IMG/VR virus record: IMGVR_UViG_3300028988_000038
DNA length: 14,054 nucleotides
Reading direction: 5' to 3' (one strand)
DNA from: a virus
Lineage: Duplodnaviria; Heunggongvirae; Uroviricota; Caudoviricetes
In this document: positions 1,697 through 14,018 of the stretch, piece by piece
How the letters are laid out: every line of letters begins with the position of its first letter
Position numbering within the stretch: position 1 is the first letter of the stretch
The notes under the pieces: generated by a model
Told to the model about the DNA's origin: nothing
Database searches by the model: none
Seen by the model: the letters and a program-made list of their open reading frames with translations, nothing else
Translations under genes and position numbers: made by a program

Positions 1697-2152
1697 TCAA
1701 CGGGGAGTAATAAAGCGTTCAGAGCCTAATCGCTCTAATTCAACGATGGCCATCTTTGACGCCTGAACGATCATGTCTCGGCGATGCGAAAAGGCGGCGA
1801 CAGCATGTTTGTATATGTCTGCGATGTGCCGTGCTTCATCCAACTTCTGCCTTTTAGACAGATACTGTGGGTTTGTTTTAACCTTAGCGTCCAGTACAGA
1901 TTCGTTGAACTTAATGCCGTTCATACTCAAGTTCTTACGCTCTGTGTCGTATAGCTTTGCTTCAACAGCTTCAAGGTTAAGTTTTGCCTCTGCGACACTT
2001 CTTTCTGCATGAGCGAGTTTTGAGCCATACTCCATTAAAAGGCGGGGTTGTCTACGCCAGACTTCCTCCAGATTGTCTCGGTCAAACTCGAGATCAGACA
2101 TTATTTTCTCGTAAATATCGGCGATCATGCACATTTCCTTATCACTTATCAT
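1697..2152 (-). CDS. Hypothetical protein, predicted coiled-coil, in the replication operon
   Basis: 151-aa ORF co-oriented and tightly spaced between the DnaE C-fragment and the gp32-like gene. The sequence is charged and helical in character; no family is recognised with confidence. Confidence 0.45.
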   Translation of the reverse strand: MISDKEMCMIADIYEKIMSDLEFDRDNLEEVWRRQPRLLMEYGSKLAHAERSVAEAKLNLEAVEAKLYDTERKNLSMNGIKFNESVLDAKVKTNPQYLSKRQKLDEARHIADIYKHAVAAFSHRRDMIVQASKMAIVELERLGSERFITPR

Positions 2153-2254
2153 TTTGTATTGATTATATCATTGTAATGATGAGGCAATGAGCTTGAAGAT
2201 AGGGGGGGTGAGGGGATAAGGGAAAACATGGCCTTTATGGCCATGTTTATTGGA

Positions 2255-3424
2255 TCACGTCTTAATAGTTTCTGCTACGTCGGCTAATATCGCTTCTAGT
2301 CGTTCTCCCTCTTCAGGTCTGAAGTAAAGAATGTTGGGGTTAAACCCGTAAAAGACAGTAACGTCAAGGTCTGGAAGATACTCCTTCCTGCCGACCAAAT
2401 CGGATGGCTTGTTTTTGTTGTTAAACAATGAAGTTGCCCGGCTGCCACACGTCAGCACATAGGTCGGACGCACCAGATTGATCTCTTCACGCATAAAGTC
2501 GGTGAACTGGCCGATCTCGTCTTTGGTGTAGTCTTTTTCTTTGTCTTTAACCTTCTTGCAAACACCTGTGACATAGAGATCGCCCATGCGTAAATCTCCA
2601 GCCGTCAATAGCTTGGCCTTAAAGTCGTCGTATCCGTTCTCCATAAAGTAACCGGTTCGAGCATCATTGCCGTTCGCATTGTCCAGAATGATCATGATTT
2701 TCGGCTTAATACCAATGCTGGGGCGGATTAGTTCATCACCTAAGCCCATTTCAGCCGCCATCCGCGTCATGAGTACGTTAATTTCAGCCGAACGTTTGGG
2801 GTTCATCTCAAACGGACGTGAGGCTTTAACTGCGTCTATGACAAGGTTTCCCATCAATTCAGCCTGGTCGCGTAGGCGCTCTGGATCAGTTGCTGGCAGA
2901 CTGCCTGGCTCGATGGATGCAAACGCCCCTACTTTTTGCAGCGATTCGCGCACTCGACTATTACAGGCACGTTTCTCGACAGCTTCTTCGAATTGCGCCA
3001 GTGACTCGAATTTGCCGCCAACTTTTTCTCGCGCTCTCATGATGGCTTGGCAGCCATTCTCAGAACACCCCTTCACAGCAGAGAAGGGCGCATACAGCAC
3101 CTGGCTGCCATCTTCAAGCGTGCGGATCTCGATTCGGTTAGATGACACGTTAACGTCTGGTGGCAATACGCGAATGCCATAGGTCAGCGCATCTTTAACC
3201 AGCCCCTGGTGTTTATCTTCGCCAAGAATAGTGAGAGCAGCAGCGAAAAACTCTGCGGGATAATGAGTTTTCAACCACATAGATTGATAACTGATTAAGG
3301 AGTAAGCAACAGAGTGTGATTTGTTGAAGGCATACGCGCCGGATTTCTCAAACATATTCCAGATTTCTTCGGCTCGTTCGTGCGTCAGGCCATTGCTCTC
3401 TTCGACAACACCGGTAATTTTCAT
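2255..3424 (-). CDS. dnaE: DNA polymerase III alpha (DnaE family), C-terminal fragment with a degenerate UDG-like C-terminal domain
   Basis: [35 protein letters not shown] matches the DnaE motif [40 protein letters not shown] matches GLKILPPDIN. QAELMG (2849-2866) sits where the internal beta-clamp motif QADMF lies. Residues about 241-389 (2258-2704) follow a family-4 UDG pattern with altered catalytic motifs. Own SD GAGGTG (3430-3435) and ATG at 3422-3424. Confidence 0.8.
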   Translation of the reverse strand: [389 protein letters not shown]

Positions 3425-4155
3425 GCAGTCACCTCATCAATCTTCACGAACTCATACCCATTGGAGGCCAGCCAGTTCCGTTGGCGCTCCCAGCTCCATA
3501 TCTCTTCACGCATTTCACTATGCAGGCGAATGTGGGCGTCTTCTGGAAGTGCTACAAGATTCCCAGGGGCGTTATCTATCGTATCGCGGTTAATATGGTG
3601 GACATGTTCATCGTCACGTAGCTCCCGACCGAGACGTTCTTTCGCTATCAATCGATGAACGTATTCGTATTGCGAAACGCCATTGTTACCAACCAGCTGC
3701 ATCATGTAGCCGTTGGTTTTTACGATGATGCCACCTTTGTAGTTGTTCGCTTCTTCTCCGATCTTTCCGCGTTTGGCAGCCGCCAGCTTTTCCTTCGTCT
3801 CCGCGCGGATTGTTCTGCCGGTTAGCTTTTTCGAAACGGTGGCCACTCGCTCATCGATATCAGCACGCAGACCGGCATTCCACGAGGTTTTCCCATACAT
3901 AGGGTTGCCAGTGCCAGTCCGGGCTTCGGAGAGACGCTTCATACGTTCGTCATTATTTTTGTTTTTGCCACGATTCCAGGCTGGGGTAGCGGAGATCCGC
4001 GCGCTTCCGCGCCTGATCCCCCATTTGGCTAATAAGCGGTCAATATTTGCCTTGCTGCAACCAGCTTCGGCGGCAATGTCTTCTTTTCTCATCAGGTCAA
4101 CCATGTAACGCTGACGTAACCATTCTTCTGTGATTTTGTACTTCGTACTCGGCAT
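3421..4155 (-). CDS. HNH homing endonuclease with N-terminal HTH and NUMOD-like repeats
   Basis: C-terminal HNH motif EHVHHINRDTIDNAPGNLVALPEDAHIRLH. GNPMYGKTSWNAGL and basic repeats resemble the NUMOD-type DNA-binding modules of phage homing endonucleases. N-terminal HTH-like segment DIAAEAGCSKANIDRLLAKWGI. Sits between the two DnaE fragments; its stop overlaps the DnaE-C start (ATGA at 3421-3424). Confidence 0.8.
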   Translation of the reverse strand: MPSTKYKITEEWLRQRYMVDLMRKEDIAAEAGCSKANIDRLLAKWGIRRGSARISATPAWNRGKNKNNDERMKRLSEARTGTGNPMYGKTSWNAGLRADIDERVATVSKKLTGRTIRAETKEKLAAAKRGKIGEEANNYKGGIIVKTNGYMMQLVGNNGVSQYEYVHRLIAKERLGRELRDDEHVHHINRDTIDNAPGNLVALPEDAHIRLHSEMREEIWSWERQRNWLASNGYEFVKIDEVTA

Positions 4156-4203
4156 TTCTAAGACTCACTAAACAAATTGTTTTCTTATCTTATAAATTAA
4201 TTC

Positions 4204-6567
4204 TCAAATATCGAAGCTCGTTATGTCGGCATTTATTGCCATTGCTTCGGCATAAGTGCGACGCTCACCATCAGCACAAAGTAGGCGTGCTGCTTTATGG
4301 ATTTTTCTCGTAGAACCATCATCCAGTGACACTGTCACCCAGCCTTCCTCCGCTCGCTTAATGAAGTCGCCGCCAATGGATTTCATTTTCTCCATATCTT
4401 TTTTCCCGATCGCTTTCCTGACCGAGTCTGCTTCCGCCATTGAGAACCCCGCCAAGATTCGCGTAGCAGCCATGATCTGTTCCTGATAAATCAGAACTCC
4501 GTTTGTGTCGCGAGAGATGTCGTCCAGCATTGGGTGTAAGGAATGTGGGGCCATGAAGCCTTTGGCCACGGACACATAATCGTCCAACATGCCGGATTGA
4601 ATCGGGCCAGGTCGGAAGAGCGCAGTTGTAGCGACGACCGTTTTAAAGCTCATTGGCTCAATTCCACCACCTAAATCTTTAAGCAGCTTGCGCATTGGGC
4701 CTGATTCAAGCTGGAATACGCCCTGTGTATACCCTGCAGCAAAACCATCCAGCACCTTGCGATCTTCAAGAGAAATGGCATCAAGATTGATATCTTCACC
4801 TGTGTTCTCTTTTATGTAGCGTTTTGCACTATCGAGCAAATCGAGAGTTGCCAGGCCAAGCACGTCCAGCTTAATTAGGCCCATAGCCTCGCAGTAACGC
4901 TTGTCAAATGCGATACAACGCGCGTCACCACGGCGTTCAACCGGTGTACGTTCTGTCAGAGGAACACCTGCTACGATCATCCCTGCCGCATGTCTACCAA
5001 AGCCACGCATAAGGCTTTGTAACTTGCAGGCTGCATTGAATGCATCAGGATATTTTGTTGCGTATTTGTCGAGACTTGCCAGTTGTTCGCGCAGCTCTTC
5101 CAATGGAAGGCTATCATCCTCGACGTTCTTCAGTTCTTTTGATACCGCCATATCTGCGGACTCCACACCATAAATACGAGCGGTGTCACGTAGTGCAGAG
5201 GCTGCGCCCAGGTAGGTGAAGTTCGGAATGCCTGCAACGTAATCTTCGCCGTAGCGTTCATTCAGATACTCGATCACCTCATGGCGACGTGCCTGGCTGA
5301 AGTCCAAGTCCGCATCCGGCAAGTCGAGACGCTCAGGGTTGATGAAACGCTCAAACAGAAGACCGTGACGGATTGGGTCGACGTTGGTTATGCCTATGCA
5401 CCACGCCACCAGAGAACCGGCAGAGGAACCACGACCAGGCCCGACAGGAATGCCAGTTTCACGGCTGTGATTCATCAGATCGCGTACCATCAGGAAGTAA
5501 CCACAAAATCCCAGGCGAGTAAGCGTGTCCATTTCGTACTTAAGTCGCTCAACATAAACCCTGTTCTCAGAAGCAGGTGGTGTGTATCCAAACTCTTTTG
5601 TGGTAAGACGTTTACGCAGCCCTGCAACAGCCAGTTTCATCAGCGTTGCAGGTTCGTCGTCTGCCATCTTGGGCAGTGCTGGTGGCAATTCATGCCAGCG
5701 CCATGTGCAGGCATCGATAATGGAGTCCTGCGTTGTTGAGGCCATTGCAGCTGTTACCGGCACATCCATGCGAACGGAGAAGGCTTTAAGCGCCTCAAGG
5801 AGATGGCGACGACCATTGATGGCGTTATCTCGCTGGTGGGGGATACGCAGACGATGCGGCTGGTCGATTTTTATGTTGTTCGTAACCATGTGCGCAATGT
5901 CTTTAATGTCTGCATCGTCGATCGATTCGTAATAAGCGGGATAGAACGCTACTGGCTCTATTTTCAGTGCGCTGGCGACTTTCATCGCCCGGACGTTAAT
6001 CTGGTCGTAGAATGGGGTAGGGTGCGGATAAACCACACTATAGAAGTTGTCTTTTCCACCCGCTGTAATCAGTGTGCTTATGATTTTTGCAAAATCGTTG
6101 CGTTGGAACACGCTACCGATGTCGGAAGTAAGCAGGATGATGTTGCCTTTGGCATATGTAGAAACCAACTGTTCGAGCGAGAGACGCGGTACAAAGTAGA
6201 ACTGTTCTCGTGTGTTGGCCGCCGTCATTAGTTCGCAGATGTCGCGATATCCTTTCTCATTTTTAATTAGAGCGGTAAACGAGTAGTTACGTCCTCGCTC
6301 TAATGATTCCATACATCTCATAGATTCTTTAGCAAGTTTAGCCCGGTGCTCGTATGTGGGATCATCAACAATGTTTAGTTTCACACCACAAATAACCGCC
6401 ATGTCGTCACCAGCGGCACGTTGTAGTGGAATAACGCTCGCAATATTCATGCTATCTGCTGAAATTACAGCGGTGTAGCCAGCTTCTCTGGCAATCTTCA
6501 CCGCGTTTTCTGCTTTTAGAGCCGACTCCCCAAGTGAGAAGTCAGTTCGAACCATCAGTGCCTTCAT
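4204..6567 (-). CDS. dnaE: DNA polymerase III alpha (DnaE family), N-terminal fragment (PHP-like, palm/thumb and part of fingers)
   Basis: [68 protein letters not shown] matches the DnaE active-site region GYFLIV...[18 protein letters not shown]...[35 protein letters not shown] and [30 protein letters not shown] also match. The ORF ends with a 45-aa tail (4207-4341) that has no DnaE homology. Confidence 0.85.
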   Translation of the reverse strand: [787 protein letters not shown]

Positions 6568-6668
6568 GTGTTTTTACCTTTCTGGTTTTTTTGATTTTGT
6601 CATTGGGGAAGCCTACGAACTTCCCATGCATCGAAATCGCAACTTCTTTTGCTGATTGGTGACAATCG

Positions 6669-6695
6669 GGCTTGTCTGGACACACCAGACAAGCC
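6669..6695. repeat. Inverted repeat / hairpin in the CobS-DnaE intergenic region
   Basis: GGCTTGTCTGG (6669-6679) and CCAGACAAGCC (6685-6695), an 11-bp perfect stem with a 5-nt loop, inside a 180-bp spacer in an otherwise tightly packed operon. Confidence 0.5.
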
Positions 6696-6747
6696 TTACC
6701 TGTTTCAGAAGCAGCGATAAGAGAGCCGAAACATCCTTTACGCACGA

Positions 6748-7983
6748 TTAACCAAATATTTTTTGAACAACTTCACGAGCCGCTTGTGCAGAAGCTGAAG
6801 GGAGTTTGTTAATGAAAGAACGCTCAATACCTGTCACAAAGTCGCCTCGCATCATTCCAATCTTGGCTGACAACAAAAGTTCACGAGGGCCAATTGGCTG
6901 ACTAATAAGGTGTTCTTCGTATCCATCGCGAACGATACCGGCAAACTTAACCATCTTTTCAGCGTATTCATCCACGATGCCTGCATTTGTCAACATGTTG
7001 ATCTCTGCGTCTTTGCTCATGTATTTCACATTCGAAACGATGCCAAAACGCGAAAAGTTCGCGGCGTTCTGGATGTTTGTACCCTGGTACAAGCCGGTTT
7101 CATCACCAGATCCGTTCGTGTTGCCAGTGCCAATGAAAGCAAACCGTTCATGCGGAGTAATGCGACGCCATTCTGGAGTTGCCTCTTTGATGACCAACGC
7201 TTCACCTTCCAGCACTGGCTGATACACGCCAAGAATTTGTGGAAACGCAAAGTCGTATTCATCCGCGAGGTAAACCCAGCCATGCTTCATTGCGAGCGCA
7301 AGCAAGCCAGGTTCGAAATACGTAGAGCCATCACGCGCCAGAATTTGCCCCGTAACATGTGCCTCTTCCATTGATGCTGTATGTTGGGCACGGATCAACG
7401 GACGATTGAGCAAAGCACATAGCTGTGTAGGCAATGACGATTTGCCTGTTCCTGCATGACCCCACAAATAGCCAGGTATGCCAAGTTCAAGCATCATGAA
7501 AATATCTTTGATCAGTTCGAAGTCGCCATATACGTAGCCCTTCTTCACTTCTGGAACGAACTCTGGATACGGCGTATTGACGTTGACGCTAACCATGAGC
7601 GGCGTCCCACGTTTTGTTCCGAGTTCTTCCACCGTTACGTTTAGCAGTTCGTGAGCTGCGACCAGATCTGTCTTGTACTCAACTGTGCCTGTGTAGCCAG
7701 GGCTACTGGTCAAGACAGAAGATTTGGCCATTTCGCTTTTTTGCTCGGCACGTTTAGCTTGAATTGCATCAAGTGCCTTTTTCGATAGCGTTGGTTCATC
7801 TGGAAACTGCGTTGTGTACATTTTCAGTACGGTGTCAGGATCGGCATCTTTTACTGACTCAGGAATGCCCTCGCAATTACCATTGGCTACATGGGACTTA
7901 AAATAGTGAAATGATTTGCCGCACCACTTGCAAACAAGGTAATCAGAAGGATTTTTTTCATTTTGCAGTGCAGTAGTCGTCAT
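6748..7983 (-). CDS. CobS-like / MoxR-type AAA+ ATPase (AAA_5) with an N-terminal Cys/His zinc-finger-like motif
   Basis: Walker A GHAGTGKSS (about 7435-7461), Walker B VYLADEYD, and the downstream pattern RFAFIGTGNTNGSG...NFSRFGIVSNVKY typical of CobS/MoxR ATPases. N-terminal CKWCGKSFHYFKSHVANGNC. Confidence 0.7.
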   Translation of the reverse strand: MTTTALQNEKNPSDYLVCKWCGKSFHYFKSHVANGNCEGIPESVKDADPDTVLKMYTTQFPDEPTLSKKALDAIQAKRAEQKSEMAKSSVLTSSPGYTGTVEYKTDLVAAHELLNVTVEELGTKRGTPLMVSVNVNTPYPEFVPEVKKGYVYGDFELIKDIFMMLELGIPGYLWGHAGTGKSSLPTQLCALLNRPLIRAQHTASMEEAHVTGQILARDGSTYFEPGLLALAMKHGWVYLADEYDFAFPQILGVYQPVLEGEALVIKEATPEWRRITPHERFAFIGTGNTNGSGDETGLYQGTNIQNAANFSRFGIVSNVKYMSKDAEINMLTNAGIVDEYAEKMVKFAGIVRDGYEEHLISQPIGPRELLLSAKIGMMRGDFVTGIERSFINKLPSASAQAAREVVQKIFG

Positions 7984-10755: not shown

Positions 10756-11142
10756 ATGTCTGACAACAAGATTGAATTTATAGAAAGTCGCTATGCTGCT
10801 TTTATCGCAGGGCTGATTGAATCCTCACCTATGAGTCAGGCCCAAATAGCCAGACTTATTGGTTATAAAAATGCCAACAACCTTTCTTTAATTAAAAGTG
10901 GCAAAATTCCTTTGCCTATCGATAAGGTTCGTCCGTTGGCGCTGGCGCTGGGTATTGAGCCAAGTCGTCTTATGATGATGGTGCTGGAAGAACGCCAACC
11001 TGAACTCGCAGCATTTTTATACAAAGAAGGCACCGCTCCTCTTAACGAGGACGAAAAACAGGTTCTTGCTGCATATAACGAGCGATTCGGTAAAGAGAAA
11101 GGCGCATCACAAAAGGTTGTTGAGGCCATAAAGTCTCTATGA
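10756..11142 (+). CDS. XRE-family helix-turn-helix transcriptional regulator (phage repressor/Cro-like)
   Basis: HTH signature MSQAQIARLIGYKNANNLSLIKSGK. Divergent from the replication operon across a 257-bp AT-rich control region; its 3' end overlaps the integrase 3' end by 6 nt. Confidence 0.6.
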   Translation: MSDNKIEFIESRYAAFIAGLIESSPMSQAQIARLIGYKNANNLSLIKSGKIPLPIDKVRPLALALGIEPSRLMMMVLEERQPELAAFLYKEGTAPLNEDEKQVLAAYNERFGKEKGASQKVVEAIKSL

Positions 11143-12240
11143 AAAATTTACACGAATAAGCTCTGTTGATAGACGATCTCCCTTGAATTTGTGGTCAATT
11201 TCGTCTAAATCCGGTTGCTCTACGATTGATGCGATGTACGTCGAGAAACTTTCTAAGGCGTCTCGCATCTCGTCCATATAATCGTGCCGGTCGTAGACTC
11301 GATCTATCCCCTCAAGACTGTGGTTCATGATTTTGCGTGATACCTCCTGGCTTATGCCTAATGCTGGGAAGTAACTACGCGCAGTGCGGCGCAAGTCTCG
11401 GGGTGTAAATGGCTCAAGCTCCATCAGTTCTGGTCGTTCCAGAATACGACGTAATGCCTGGGCTATTGCCACTTTAGACATAGGAAGGTCTTTCCCGATT
11501 TTTTTATTCGAAGGCACGAGCCACTGGCTGCCTTTACCGTATTCGAACAACTCTTCAATGCATGTGCGCATTAATGAGCTTAAAGGCAGAGAATGCTCAC
11601 GGGCAGATTTGTTCCTCTTGCCTTGATTCCAAACCCCACGCTTAAGATTGAACTCACTTTTTTTAGCCCGCAGTACTTCGTCAGGTCGTCTTGCGGATAC
11701 AAGACATAGCCTGGCCGCCCATTTTGTACCAGCACACACATTGAAGTAGTCCCATATATTCCAGAACACCCATACCTCTGCGTCGGTTAGCTTCCGCTCG
11801 CGAGGTGTGGGCTTTGCGCCACCGGCAACTTTGTTAAGTGACATATCGTTTAACGGTGACACGTCGATCATCCCCTGGAAGGCGCACCAGCTGAGGAACT
11901 GCTTCATCAGAGAGAAAACGCGGCGACCCATAACAATTTTGCCATCCAGTATTAGTGGGTTGACCAGTTGGTTCACCATGAACCTATTAATATCACTTAC
12001 TTTTACATCGGCAATGTGCGGCAAAACATGTATCAAAATACAATGAACAGCGATCTCTGGCCGACGTCTTGTTATCAGCAGAGATAAGCGAGTGAATAAC
12101 ATGAATGCGTCCGAGAATCTCATGTCATTGCTGACCTGGGAGATCATAACGGCCTGCATTTGAGATGCTCTTTCGAGATACTCAATCGCCTCTTTTGAGG
12201 TGTTCTCCGCAGCGCGTGCTCTGTCAAAGCTATTTTTCAT
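11137..12240 (-). CDS. int: Tyrosine recombinase / phage integrase
   Basis: C-terminal catalytic-domain pattern: an ARRPDEVL segment aligning with the box I Arg region, PRDLRRT aligning with box II, and NHSLEGIDRVYDRHDY with the candidate catalytic Tyr. 367 aa. Confidence 0.75.
   Translation of the reverse strand: MKNSFDRARAAENTSKEAIEYLERASQMQAVMISQVSNDMRFSDAFMLFTRLSLLITRRRPEIAVHCILIHVLPHIADVKVSDINRFMVNQLVNPLILDGKIVMGRRVFSLMKQFLSWCAFQGMIDVSPLNDMSLNKVAGGAKPTPRERKLTDAEVWVFWNIWDYFNVCAGTKWAARLCLVSARRPDEVLRAKKSEFNLKRGVWNQGKRNKSAREHSLPLSSLMRTCIEELFEYGKGSQWLVPSNKKIGKDLPMSKVAIAQALRRILERPELMELEPFTPRDLRRTARSYFPALGISQEVSRKIMNHSLEGIDRVYDRHDYMDEMRDALESFSTYIASIVEQPDLDEIDHKFKGDRLSTELIRVNFS

Positions 12241-12490: not shown

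Positions 12491-14018
<1,528 letters not shown>

Follow-up and report, generated by a model that had tools for sequence, protein, structure and literature searches.

A family-C DNA polymerase encoded by two genes in an E. coli phage-plasmid has a probable split-intein relic at its break

The split intein of cyanobacterial DnaE was reportedly described by Wu and colleagues in 1998. In phage Aeh1, NrdA is split and requires its tails for activity, and the authors speculated that a degenerate split intein had left these tails behind (PMC3045599). 'Fractured genes', in which split intein halves lie around a free-standing homing endonuclease gene, have also been reported (Dassa et al. 2009, PMC2677866). 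They include three DnaE loci from marine metagenomes, and loss of the endonuclease that leaves the gene split was observed as well (PMC2677866). Gene 43 of the T4-related phages 25 and 44RR is split into 43A and 43B (Petrov et al. 2010, via PMC2988022). According to the summary in PMC2988022, one of these phages has a seg-type endonuclease in the gap, and its relative has an untranslated intercistronic spacer only. The relevant passages of a 2014 survey (PMC3919608) describe a PHP-Pol3-HhH polymerase family in which an archaeal-type UDG domain (PF03167) replaces the OB and C-terminal domains; in these passages, fragmented sequences are treated mostly as frameshift or assembly errors, and the intein-split cyanobacterial dnaE genes are joined.

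We analysed a 14,054-nt stretch of DNA (the window), which belongs to an SSU5/pHCM2-type E. coli phage-plasmid. The initial annotation had described a DnaE-type polymerase whose two ORFs can be translated independently and are separated by an HNH homing-endonuclease gene. Both the ORF list and the Pfam matches agree with this description, and all three ORFs lie on the minus strand. The N-terminal polymerase fragment, dnaE-N (4204-6567), encodes 787 aa followed by a TGA stop and contains the PHP, palm and thumb domains, most of the fingers domain and a C-terminal tail of 45 aa (aa 743-787, positions 4207-4341); the Pfam matches are PHP (3.6e-13), DNA_pol3_alpha (5.8e-74) and DNA_pol3_finger (1.4e-44). 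An AT-rich spacer of 48 nt (4156-4203) separates its stop from the HNH start. Inside the spacer lies the palindrome AACAAATTGTT (4171-4181), found once in the 14-kb window against 0.05 copies expected. It is kept in the spacers of related loci L002-L005 and L011-L013, and L006 has two copies. The free-standing HNH gene (3421-4155), which we call class A, encodes 244 aa with NUMOD3 in the N-terminal DNA-binding part (27.6 bits) and a C-terminal HNH_3 domain (31.9 bits), each over the Pfam cut-off. The 3' end of this ORF includes the Shine-Dalgarno sequence GAGGTG (3430-3435) of dnaE-C. The dnaE-C ATG (3424-3422) follows 5 nt downstream and overlaps the HNH stop TGA (3423-3421) as ATGA; both elements, noted earlier, can be read directly in the sequence. 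The same stop/start overlap occurs in L009 and L017. The C-terminal polymerase fragment, dnaE-C (2255-3424), encodes 389 aa and consists of a short head (MKITGVVEE, 3398-3424) predicted to form a beta-strand, the remaining fingers with FNKSHS, an HhH domain (HHH_6, 5.3e-17) and a UDG-like C-terminal domain, for which the Pfam match was below threshold. A frameshift or sequencing artefact is excluded, since 23 complete E. coli genomes share this layout, as do plasmids of Enterobacter and Cronobacter.

To map the break, we used the unsplit 1168-aa allele of pHH107-1. DnaE-N corresponds to its residues 1-781 and DnaE-C to residues 785-1168, so by alignment the bisection is clean and without loss of polymerase sequence. 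DnaE-C is 96% identical to the corresponding residues, which bears out the earlier view that the downstream ORF is derived from DnaE; through an unsplit homologue it aligns with Taq Pol III alpha 789-946. The initial annotation saw no DnaE similarity in the final 45 residues of DnaE-N. This holds for cellular DnaE: in the phmmer alignment, query residues 739 and 788 are paired with the adjacent Taq residues 788 and 789, respectively. It does not hold for the unsplit allele of the same plasmid family, where these residues are homologous to an in-frame insert, nor for the second half of a DnaE-type split-intein IntN, to which they are also homologous. Similarly, the motif AEE(G/S)NG had been seen in both fragments. 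AEEG and VEESNG do flank the insertion, and both align to the single segment GAAEHSG of insert-less relatives, but we found no duplication at the DNA level and none in other lineages. The break had been placed in the same neighbourhood as the cyanobacterial DnaE inteins; it actually lies about 25 residues upstream of that site.

We compared the tail with inteins by sequence profile and by structure. A tail profile (A3) was run against 177,635 PDB sequences, and the 13 best matches were all DnaE inteins, for example 7qil (6.5e-7), Npu 4lx3 (7.6e-6) and Ssp 1zd7 (1.3e-4). A second tail profile (A5) gave the same outcome with a best E of 9e-6. When the tail was aligned with Npu IntN by hhalign, the probability was 95% and the score 39.8, and shuffled targets scored 9.4 on average (sd 1.9, maximum 16.4). 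Among the Foldseek matches, Npu DnaE inteins had the highest probabilities (0.82-0.93). The homologous region is residues ~57-100 of a DnaE-type IntN, from the block-B region up to the natural split site. The statement of the initial annotation that no intein signatures are present is correct for the Pfam scan, which found no Hint family in the tail; judged from the profile and structure comparisons, the tail derives from a DnaE-type split intein and is a relic without catalytic residues, in which the block-B TxxH reads HxxA or HxxR. The head of DnaE-C is too short for significance in a profile search of its own. The joined tail and head profile is colinear across the Npu split site with a probability of 78%, and almost all split C-fragments begin with MK[IV] and have FNKSH at residue 32-33. 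It is possible that the head is a relic of the first IntC strand (compare Npu IntC MIKIATRK), and the evidence for this is suggestive. In the AF2 model of an unsplit homologue (pLDDT 83-92 across the region), the insert has a helix (772-778) and a strand (782-789) on the two sides of the break, the strand being located at the head. By these comparisons the break is at the canonical split-intein and endonuclease-domain position within the intein. No relative was found to have an intact intein at this DnaE site.

We consider it likely that the decayed split intein now works as a non-covalent clasp between the polymerase halves. The replicative polymerase of the phage-plasmid itself is a family-C DnaE, here encoded by two genes, in which the UDG-like domain stands in for the OB domain and the tau-binding C-terminus. 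The two polymerase genes and the HNH gene between them have the same orientation and are probably transcribed together, and dnaE-C would be translated from its own strong Shine-Dalgarno sequence and the ATG overlapping the HNH stop. Neither the mRNA nor the protein would be spliced, and the halves are not expected to be rejoined because the splicing elements needed for this are absent. The 787-aa and 389-aa chains may instead reassemble non-covalently into one polymerase. The interface would be a small beta-rich module in which a beta-hairpin and a helix come from the DnaE-N tail and a beta-strand from the ~9 residues at the start of DnaE-C. As the profile and structure comparisons show, this module retains the second half of IntN, and possibly the first IntC strand as well; in a split intein, it is through these parts that the halves dock. 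Block A with Cys1, the histidine of block B, blocks F and G, the terminal Asn and the +1 nucleophile have been lost. The gap may serve as a landing pad for free-standing homing endonucleases.

Repair at the RNA level would require that the HNH ORF lies in a self-splicing intron and that one full-length DnaE is made from the spliced mRNA. HNH endonucleases are commonly intron-encoded in phage polymerase genes (SPO1 and SP82, as cited in the passages of PMC2988022 on this subject), but no intron is detectable here: Rfam gave no family at E<=10 on either strand of 3000-4700, and the fold predicted for the spacer RNA with its palindrome is not significant. In addition, the 806-nt insert has 735 nt of HNH ORF with 48 nt of 5' non-coding sequence and none 3', the two halves do not share a reading frame, and a separate Shine-Dalgarno sequence and ATG serve the second half. 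Nuclease-free split alleles retain only the stop, a spacer of 69-70 nt and the ATG, and this is below any ribozyme size. We therefore regard an intron as extremely improbable. Trans-splicing of the proteins by the tail and head as a still-active, extremely reduced or atypical split intein is hardly more credible. The significant homology of the tail to the DnaE split-intein IntN and the position of the break at the canonical split site are what one would expect of it. At another DnaE site, relatives such as L015 have a free-standing HNH gene between split-intein halves that Pfam detects; at a further one they show weaker, sub-threshold intein signals with an unassigned ORF. However, the minimum size of a Hint domain is ~125 aa, and the tail and head together have only ~55 aa. 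The first ~53 IntN residues are gone, including Cys1 and block A, HxxA or HxxR replaces the block-B TxxH, there is no block F, block G or terminal Asn, and the Pfam Hint models have no match. Conservation is lacking at the residue after the head (V, I, T or K), and in unsplit alleles the relic stays permanently in frame. Ligation is not expected, because every catalytic intein element is missing in the window. It could also be supposed that the nuclease insertion killed the polymerase and that the element persists through its plasmid replicon while the two ORFs decay. The RefSeq annotation of the C half is in effect this pseudogene reading. Several plasmids carry the PGAP tag 'incomplete; partial in the middle of a contig; missing N-terminus' on the C half, and a phage-plasmid with a dead lytic polymerase could indeed persist through its plasmid replicon. 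None of the isolated plaque-forming phages in the phage collection is split (SSU5, Cyrano, pJN2-26, nickie and BUCTxx99 are unsplit). Nevertheless, DnaE-N (787 aa) and DnaE-C (389 aa) are intact in all close split loci checked. Among the split alleles of the window, Buttiauxella, Enterobacter and Cronobacter, dN/dS is 0.029-0.051 for DnaE-N and 0.015-0.023 for DnaE-C, taken at dS 0.56-1.66. Lineages of 33-97% identity agree in start, stop, Shine-Dalgarno sequence and head length, and split clusters have hundreds to thousands of members. These values point to strong purifying selection on both halves, and conservation argues that both chains are needed, a possibility raised earlier, and that polymerase function is retained in the split form. 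A decaying pseudogene is thus quite improbable, though less so than either kind of splicing.

The initial annotation named the present HNH gene as the splitter. One could imagine that it split an intact gene that already had a lineage-specific 48-aa insert, and that the intein likeness is mechanistically meaningless. The class-A gene is found at this site in 23 of the 245 E. coli plasmids with this dnaE, always in one copy, and at the corresponding position L007 and L009 have homologues of 40-46% identity. Its dN/dS is 0.17-0.21 at dS 0.15-0.38, which is far under the polymerase dS, and the gene appears to be still under selection. Identity was measured in 100-nt bins. Over ~1.4 kb (approximately 3270-4670, made up of the nuclease cassette and, of the adjoining dnaE, ~450 nt upstream and ~150 nt downstream), the identity of the window to the unsplit allele of E. 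coli is 61-73%, against 93-99% to the split alleles of Enterobacter and Buttiauxella. Outside this co-conversion tract, identity to the unsplit allele is mostly 99-100% with a few bins at 94-97%, and identity to the Enterobacter and Buttiauxella split alleles is just 71-97%. By this pattern the tract is of foreign origin inside an E. coli-type backbone, which is a signature of homing. Mobility of the nuclease is also indicated by its presence in some plasmids and absence from others, and by its low dS. The class-A gene, together with polymerase sequence on its flanks, would have been copied recently into an E. coli backbone whose earlier allele was unsplit and had the relic in frame. This transfer of a cassette into an unsplit, insert-bearing backbone is in favor of a split made by the nuclease, as are the unsplit alleles of E. 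coli, Shigella and Xenorhabdus that carry the insert in frame. On the other hand, all distant unsplit relatives are without the insert (their GKK-to-FNKSH distance is 43-44 aa), and all split forms have it. Across loci the termini of the gap stay the same but its contents differ: either of two unrelated HNH classes, other ORFs, or nothing at all. The split also occurs in lineages merely 35-41% identical, and the two-gene layout with constant head length recurs down to 33-41% identity. Split clusters contain more than 1000 member sequences (e.g., P0208 from K. pneumoniae). Thus, by its distribution the split appears to be old and widespread, and the present HNH gene probably did not make it. 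The junction lengths of unsplit alleles with the insert vary (-8, -4 and +1 aa) while split heads are constant, so several independent re-fusions fit better than one fission; the neighbor-joining tree is poorly resolved on the order of events. Taken together, we consider a split made by the present nuclease unlikely, although it is the least improbable of these alternatives to a decayed intein.

The locus resembles the 'genes-in-pieces' nrdA-a / mobE / nrdA-b of Aeromonas phage Aeh1 (Friedrich et al. 2007; Crona et al. 2011, PMC3045599). In both, an essential replication-related phage enzyme is bisected with a free-standing HNH gene in the gap, the nuclease ORF overlaps the downstream half, no RNA or protein splicing is involved, and each half has a unique C- or N-terminal tail that is missing from unsplit homologues. 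In contrast to Aeh1, the host gene here is a family-C DNA polymerase, and the arrangement is apparently ancient and widespread and not confined to one phage. The order of N-part with IntN, free-standing endonuclease and IntC with C-part in one operon of phage-like DnaE genes is shared with the fractured genes (PMC2677866), and L015 has this layout, with split-intein halves that Pfam detects around an HNH gene. The window, however, keeps only ~45+9 intein residues and no catalytic element, and the endonucleases at this site are HNH, while those in PMC2677866 are GIY-YIG or Vsr-like. The closest relatives of the tail in sequence and structure are the cyanobacterial DnaE split inteins (Ssp/Npu; PDB 1zd7, 4kl5, 4lx3), which share the host protein family, the fingers domain and the break position within the intein. 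They differ in that the insertion in the window is ~25 residues upstream of the CFNKSH site, the halves are adjacent and not at separate loci, and the relic is non-catalytic. A split replicative DNA polymerase is also known from phages 25 and 44RR, and its two chains co-purify (PMC2988022, in its account of these phages). The gap contents of these phages parallel those of the window on the one side and the nuclease-free spacers of Buttiauxella and Klebsiella type on the other, but their polymerase is of family B and no intein-derived tails are reported in that account. The 2014 survey covers the same protein family as the window polymerase; its passages on this family describe contiguous genes and mention neither the split form nor the insert (PMC3919608). 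For the Aeh1 tails, an origin from a split intein was speculation; for the tail described here, homology to a split intein has statistical support.

All genes between positions 92 and 10187 of the window lie on the minus strand. The initial annotation had described a DnaE-type polymerase gene in two ORFs around an HNH gene, and the ORFs, the Pfam matches and an alignment to an unsplit allele confirm this. The dnaE-N gene (6567-4204, minus strand, 787 aa; Pfam PHP, DNA_pol3_alpha at 5.8e-74 and DNA_pol3_finger) encodes the N-terminal fragment of a split family-C polymerase and ends at the TGA codon 4206-4204, which is followed by an AT-rich spacer of 48 nt. Then comes the HNH gene (4155-3421, minus strand, 244 aa). 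The dnaE-C gene for the C-terminal fragment (3424-2255, minus strand, 389 aa; Pfam HHH_6 and a sub-threshold UDG) begins with an ATG (3424-3422) that overlaps the HNH stop codon TGA (3423-3421), and its SD site, GAGGTG, is at 3435-3430. A consensus scan of the coding strand over 2100-6900 revealed no promoter-like or terminator-like site, the counts being no higher than the shuffle expectation. According to Pfam, the neighbours of dnaE encode a CobT-like VWA protein, an AAA_5 ATPase, a gp32-like single-strand-binding protein and a 5'-3' exonuclease. Over 2000-6800 the window matches E. coli plasmid pSJC33-2 with 100% identity, and all 253 matches to this segment (245 complete E. coli genomes) are on ~110-kb plasmids. 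The window is part of an SSU5/pHCM2-type phage-plasmid.

Several other features of the region were observed. A Cys-rich 67-aa ORF (CLVCPDKPDC...; 6542-6745), which has no Pfam match, overlaps the start of dnaE-N by 26 nt and is also kept in a Buttiauxella plasmid (L003, 5876-6079). Just 3' of dnaE-C, at ~2153-2254, there is a variable slot for accessory genes. In related plasmids this slot holds opposite-strand genes (L011 484-1332, L012 584-1432, L013 574-1164), and the genes found there include those for a DUF4365 protein, an HTH regulator and hypothetical proteins. The extra genes of H17-H19 were placed in this slot and are unrelated to the split. At 11137-12240 and 12835-14018, a tyrosine integrase gene (Phage_integrase, 4.2e-10) adjoins an IS3-family element with a typical orfA/orfB pair; GC rises to 0.54-0.56 over the IS, which may be IS911-like.

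To locate the break, we used the unsplit 1168-aa DnaE of plasmid pHH107-1. DnaE-N aligns with its residues 1-781, and residues 6-389 of DnaE-C are 96% identical to its residues 785-1168. Judged by this alignment, the bisection is clean, with no sequence lost or duplicated. In a phmmer search of PDB sequences, the unsplit homologue gave matches to Pol III alpha of Taq and E. coli (1e-114 to 1e-125); its residues 315-739 correspond to residues 363-788 of the Taq protein, and 788-949 to 789-946. This two-block alignment indicates that residues 740-787 (48 aa) are inserted into the fingers domain. The break is close to the C-terminal end of this insertion, ~25 residues upstream of FNKSHS. The last 45 aa of DnaE-N (743-787, the tail) had been described as lacking DnaE similarity. 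It turned out that they are indeed missing from cellular enzymes, but a diverged copy is present in the unsplit pHH107-1 allele. What the initial annotation observed was correct, and its interpretation was right in part.

Among the split alleles of the window, Buttiauxella, Enterobacter and Cronobacter, dN/dS was 0.029-0.051 for the N half and 0.015-0.023 for the C half, with dS of 0.56-1.66. The 787-aa and 389-aa ORFs are intact in all close split loci checked. These values indicate that purifying selection acts on both halves. The conservation of its ATG and SD site, together with these selection data, indicates that dnaE-C is a genuine gene.

In RefSeq, PGAP calls the C half a pseudogene ('incomplete; partial in the middle of a contig; missing N-terminus'), and this call begins 51 nt inside the true ORF. 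The C-half ORFs concerned in annotation are window 2255-3424, L002 1756-2874, L011 1511-2629, L012 1463-2581 and L013 1383-2501. Other records name the C half 'uracil-DNA glycosylase' or 'helix-hairpin-helix domain-containing protein'. Such mis-annotation in some RefSeq/NCBI records distorts the judging of clinically common phage-plasmids as intact phages. The C-terminal ~190 aa of DnaE-C (window 2255-2850) probably form a UDG-superfamily-like domain replacing the OB and tau-binding domains. In the window, the UDG (PF03167) score is 17.5 bits, under the cut-off of 24.3; in a ~107-kb relative (L015) it is 38.4 bits, and many homologues pass. A UDG-bearing DnaE architecture is already described for Y. 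pestis and S. enterica plasmids (pMT1/pHCM2-type) (PMC3919608).

Could the two halves be joined at the RNA or ribosome level? The initial annotation proposed an Rfam scan for an intron. We ran it with Rfam 15 on both strands of 3000-4700 with E<=10, and nothing matched, neither introns nor other RNA families. Only 48 of the 806 inserted nucleotides are non-coding (48 nt 5' of the HNH ORF and 0 nt 3'). A group I or group II intron was therefore rejected, since no ribozyme covariance model matches and the non-coding sequence is too short for a ribozyme core. Ribosomal bypassing of the T4 gene 60 kind was also weighed for the nuclease-free split alleles, in which 69-70 nt separate the halves; for the 806-nt gap of the window it is implausible. 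RNA folds of the window spacer and SD region were not significant (z -0.6 to -0.9). The spacer does contain a palindrome, AACAAATTGTT, after the dnaE-N stop (4171-4181). It occurs once in 14 kb versus 0.05 expected and is conserved in the spacers of all close split alleles. In a Klebsiella-type nuclease-free spacer, two copies of it pair as a 15-bp hairpin (z -2.55), a fold seen in this spacer only. The palindrome may serve as an operator or as a processing site, or may be left over from the regulation of the nuclease gene.

We then asked how the tail is distributed, using a full HMMER search with DnaE-N against 1.84 billion representatives, followed by alignment. Every distant unsplit relative (1077-1140 aa) is without the insert, and every distant split N fragment (~19 clusters) carries a tail of 44-50 aa. 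In 66 IMG/VR loci, the distance from GKK to FNKSH fell into three classes: some 40 unsplit genes have 43-44 aa, another ~10 unsplit genes, from close enterobacterial relatives, have 95-99 aa, and ~12 split loci have 97-102 aa when the two ORFs are added. The 36 distinct tails form a single conserved family with the consensus AxxG[WYF]xEVELeDGSxxxVHRxxKfxCxDGxxRTiEEA...DI.

A profile built from 34 of the 36 tails was compared with 177,635 distinct PDB sequences. The top 13 matches were all DnaE inteins: the best was the halophilic DnaE intein 7qil (E 6.5e-7), Npu DnaE structures 4lx3, 4qfq, 2keq and 4kl5 gave E 7.6e-6 to 1.3e-5, and Ssp DnaE 1zd7 and 1zde gave 1.3e-4. The match spans intein residues ~57-100, the block-B region, and ends just before the natural split site. 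A local hhalign comparison of the tail with Npu IntN, the N half of the split intein, gave a probability of 95% and a score of 39.8; for 200 shuffled targets the mean score was 9.4 (sd 1.9, maximum 16.4). The aligned segment of the Npu sequence used for hhalign is identical to that of the Npu sequence in the PDB matches. The first ~9 aa of DnaE-C (MKITGVVEE, the head) may continue this relation. In hhalign, the joined module is colinear over the break, with MKITGVV of the head facing (M)IKIATRK of IntC, the C half of the intein; the head alone is too short for significance. A profile of tail and head joined gave the same PDB list (best E 9e-6), but the match did not extend into IntC. The highest-probability Foldseek matches were again Npu DnaE inteins (0.82-0.93), with E-values that are not significant. 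An assignment of the tail to intein block A (VxLxDG) was rejected, as hhalign and hmmsearch both put the tail on the block-B half. A Pfam scan of the isolated tail found no Hint or intein family, only a spurious Myosin_N (E 0.042). Among longer N-fragments and the 66 IMG/VR loci, no relative had an intact intein at the window's site. By profile comparison, the tail is identified as a relic of a DnaE split-intein IntN, with partial homology.

The relic begins at about Npu residue 54, with host sequence before it, so that the first ~53 IntN residues, including Cys1 and block A, are missing. In place of block-B TxxH, the window has HxxA and the consensus HxxR. There are no blocks F and G and no terminal Asn, and the ~9-aa head has no HN or Asn. 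The residue after the head, at the +1 position where splicing calls for Cys, Ser or Thr, varies among V, I, T and K. Since catalytic parts are missing, the relic totals ~55 aa and there is no Pfam Hint match, protein splicing is not expected. Each of the two ORFs has translation signals of its own, and neither an intron nor a catalytic intein is present.

The DnaE-N and DnaE-C chains probably associate non-covalently via the relic. The unsplit homologue was modelled with AF2 as a single chain. In this model (pLDDT 84.6 overall, 83-92 over the insert), the insert contains a helix at 725-739, strands at 743-748 and 753-757, a helix at 772-778 and a last strand at 782-789. It is between the 772-778 helix and this strand that the gene is broken, which suggests that the DnaE-C head would supply that strand. 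IntN2 and the start of IntC are the first-contact part of split inteins in the 'capture and collapse' model.

The nuclease of the window scores 31.9 bits for HNH_3 (cut-off 24.8) and 27.6 bits for NUMOD3 (cut-off 20.4), and the HNH motif is visible in its translation (EHVHHINRD...NAPGNL...DAHIRLH). Of 5426 complete E. coli genomes, 245 have this dnaE, and 23 of these carry the nuclease gene, each in a single copy and always at this site. The gene is missing from pHH107-1 and from the Buttiauxella plasmid and is also found in Enterobacter and Cronobacter plasmids, with a dN/dS of 0.17-0.21. Outside a tract of ~1.4 kb (gene nt ~1900-3300, window ~4670-3270), most 100-nt bins of the window allele share 99-100% identity with the unsplit E. 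coli allele, and a few are at 94-97%. Inside the tract, the identity to that allele is 61-73% versus 93-99% to the Enterobacter and Buttiauxella split alleles. The mosaic of the window allele is the footprint expected of homing with co-conversion of flanks. The nuclease cassette is mobile.

In other lineages the gap holds an unrelated HNH class, other ORFs or nothing. The second HNH class (L014 3284-3979, L017 4312-5004, L023/L024; 230-231 aa, NUMOD4+HNH_3 N-terminal and HTH C-terminal) fills exactly the same gap in Klebsiella-type and distant metagenomic relatives; the nucleases of L014 and L017 are 36% identical. Thus, the window HNH gene occupies the gap and is not demonstrably its cause. 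Two homologues of the window's own class (L007 and L009) are 40-46% identical to it, and the flanking polymerase is similar in this respect (35-41%). A word-indexed homologue search found only five clusters of the HNH protein, with at least 88% identity. With phmmer, this protein had no match at E<=1 among PDB sequences, and with tblastn against 50,697 phage records it had distant matches only, all <60% identical (~27% over the full length) and none in a dnaE context.

C fragments standing alone, 385-401 aa long, occur down to 33% identity. Distant split contigs keep the order of an N fragment of 780-790 aa, an HNH gene of 230-242 aa and a C fragment of 395-401 aa, often with the same ATGA overlap, and nearly all split C fragments have an MK[IV] start and FNKSH at residue 32-33. 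Split clusters are large; for example, one of 787 aa from K. pneumoniae has 1105 members and one of 389 aa has 1459. To judge from these homologues, the two-gene layout is old. In the phage collection searched, there was no isolated phage with this split. In the word-indexed search, the 389-aa query listed nothing longer than ~670 aa, and the 96%-identical 1168-aa unsplit alleles came only with the 787-aa query, so that missing long matches there do not mean that unsplit forms are absent. Nuclease-free split alleles also occur. Buttiauxella p1WJP83 has 787-aa and 389-aa ORFs with the same termini, 69 nt apart, and the spacer keeps the HNH start codon and the last ~20 nt of the HNH gene; it looks like an internal deletion of the nuclease gene. 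A Klebsiella-type contig has an N fragment of 790 aa, a spacer of 70 nt and a C fragment of 386 aa. Separately, DnaE of L083 (IMG/VR 3300044832_000001) is split elsewhere: 244 residues precede FNKSH in the C piece, and the 42-nt gap is without a nuclease gene.

In ~90% of E. coli SSU5-like plasmids, the relic is in frame as the 48-aa fingers insert of an unsplit 1168-aa DnaE (in E. coli and Shigella, L001 1755-5261 and protein clusters P0121-P0207). The junction of the Xenorhabdus-type unsplit protein (1178 aa) is exactly tail plus head, KKVIGVV versus MKITGVV, and that of the E. coli type is 8 aa shorter. The junction length thus varies among the E. coli, Klebsiella (1172 aa) and Xenorhabdus types, which favours independent in-frame re-fusions of the split gene. 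In an NJ tree of residues 300-737, split and unsplit alleles are interleaved; its terminal branches are long and its internal ones short, so that it is poorly resolved on the order of fission and fusion.

It is possible, with a confidence that we put a little short of even, that the tail and head jointly record all five steps of a whole intein life cycle in one polymerase family. A DnaE-type intein would have entered the fingers domain and become split, with a free-standing endonuclease gene in the gap. All catalytic parts would have been lost and the intein domesticated into a non-covalent clasp of ~55 residues. What remains of it would be IntN2 and the initial strand of IntC, which form the 'capture' interface of split inteins. 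The resulting gap would have become a reusable landing pad for unrelated homing endonucleases. Finally, several lineages of Enterobacterales, among them ~90% of the SSU5-like plasmids of E. coli, would have re-fused the halves in frame, leaving a dead-intein scar in the fingers domain. If true, this would be the first sequence-supported case of a route only speculated for split phage genes by Crona et al. (2011).

When essential genes are cut by mobile DNA, their survival is usually put down to splicing (introns, inteins) or to lucky tolerance of the break. The relic suggests a natural minimal heterodimerisation module (~45 + 9 residues) derived from a split intein. The natural states are unsplit without the insert, split with the window's nuclease class, split with the second class, split without a nuclease and apparently re-fused. 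As the split is on natural E. coli and Klebsiella plasmids with all intermediates, the hypothesis can be put to a direct test in a tractable host. What is new is that the assembly tails have a measurable intein ancestry, together with the natural state series on these plasmids, and in the literature we found no paper on a split or an intein relic in SSU5/pHCM2-type DnaE.

A different arrangement was seen in L015 (metagenome contig SRR24750912_15051, 634-6650), where DnaE is in at least three pieces (481, 373 and 549 aa). Between the pieces are a 339-aa ORF, which no Pfam family matches, and an HNH gene of 247 aa. Split-intein halves flank the HNH gene: the 373-aa piece ends in an Intein_splicing match of 41.8 bits, and positions 117-155 of that model match the start of the 549-aa piece at 16.6 bits, under threshold. 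At the second break, around the 339-aa ORF, weaker sub-threshold Hint and Intein_splicing matches lie at the end of the 481-aa piece. Dassa et al. 2009 (PMC2677866) described such a layout as a 'fractured gene'; L015 has it in the same polymerase family, at sites unlike the window's. The intein halves of L015 are detectable by Pfam, whereas the window tail has no Pfam Hint match.

Genes in pieces associated with homing endonuclease genes are established for Aeh1 nrdA/mobE, T4 39/60 with mobA, and gene 43 of phages 25 and 44RR, a pair that includes a nuclease-free spacer variant (PMC2988022). In Aeh1 NrdA, short tails gained with the insertion are essential for function and have been speculated to be degenerate split-intein remnants (Crona et al. 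2011, PMC3045599). The window shares these features of the Aeh1 NrdA type: a contiguous homologue is divided over two ORFs, there is selection on both halves, and every split form has the tail and a head of constant length, which distant unsplit forms lack. The intein origin, however, is a speculation for the Aeh1 tails, whereas for the window tail there is measurable homology.
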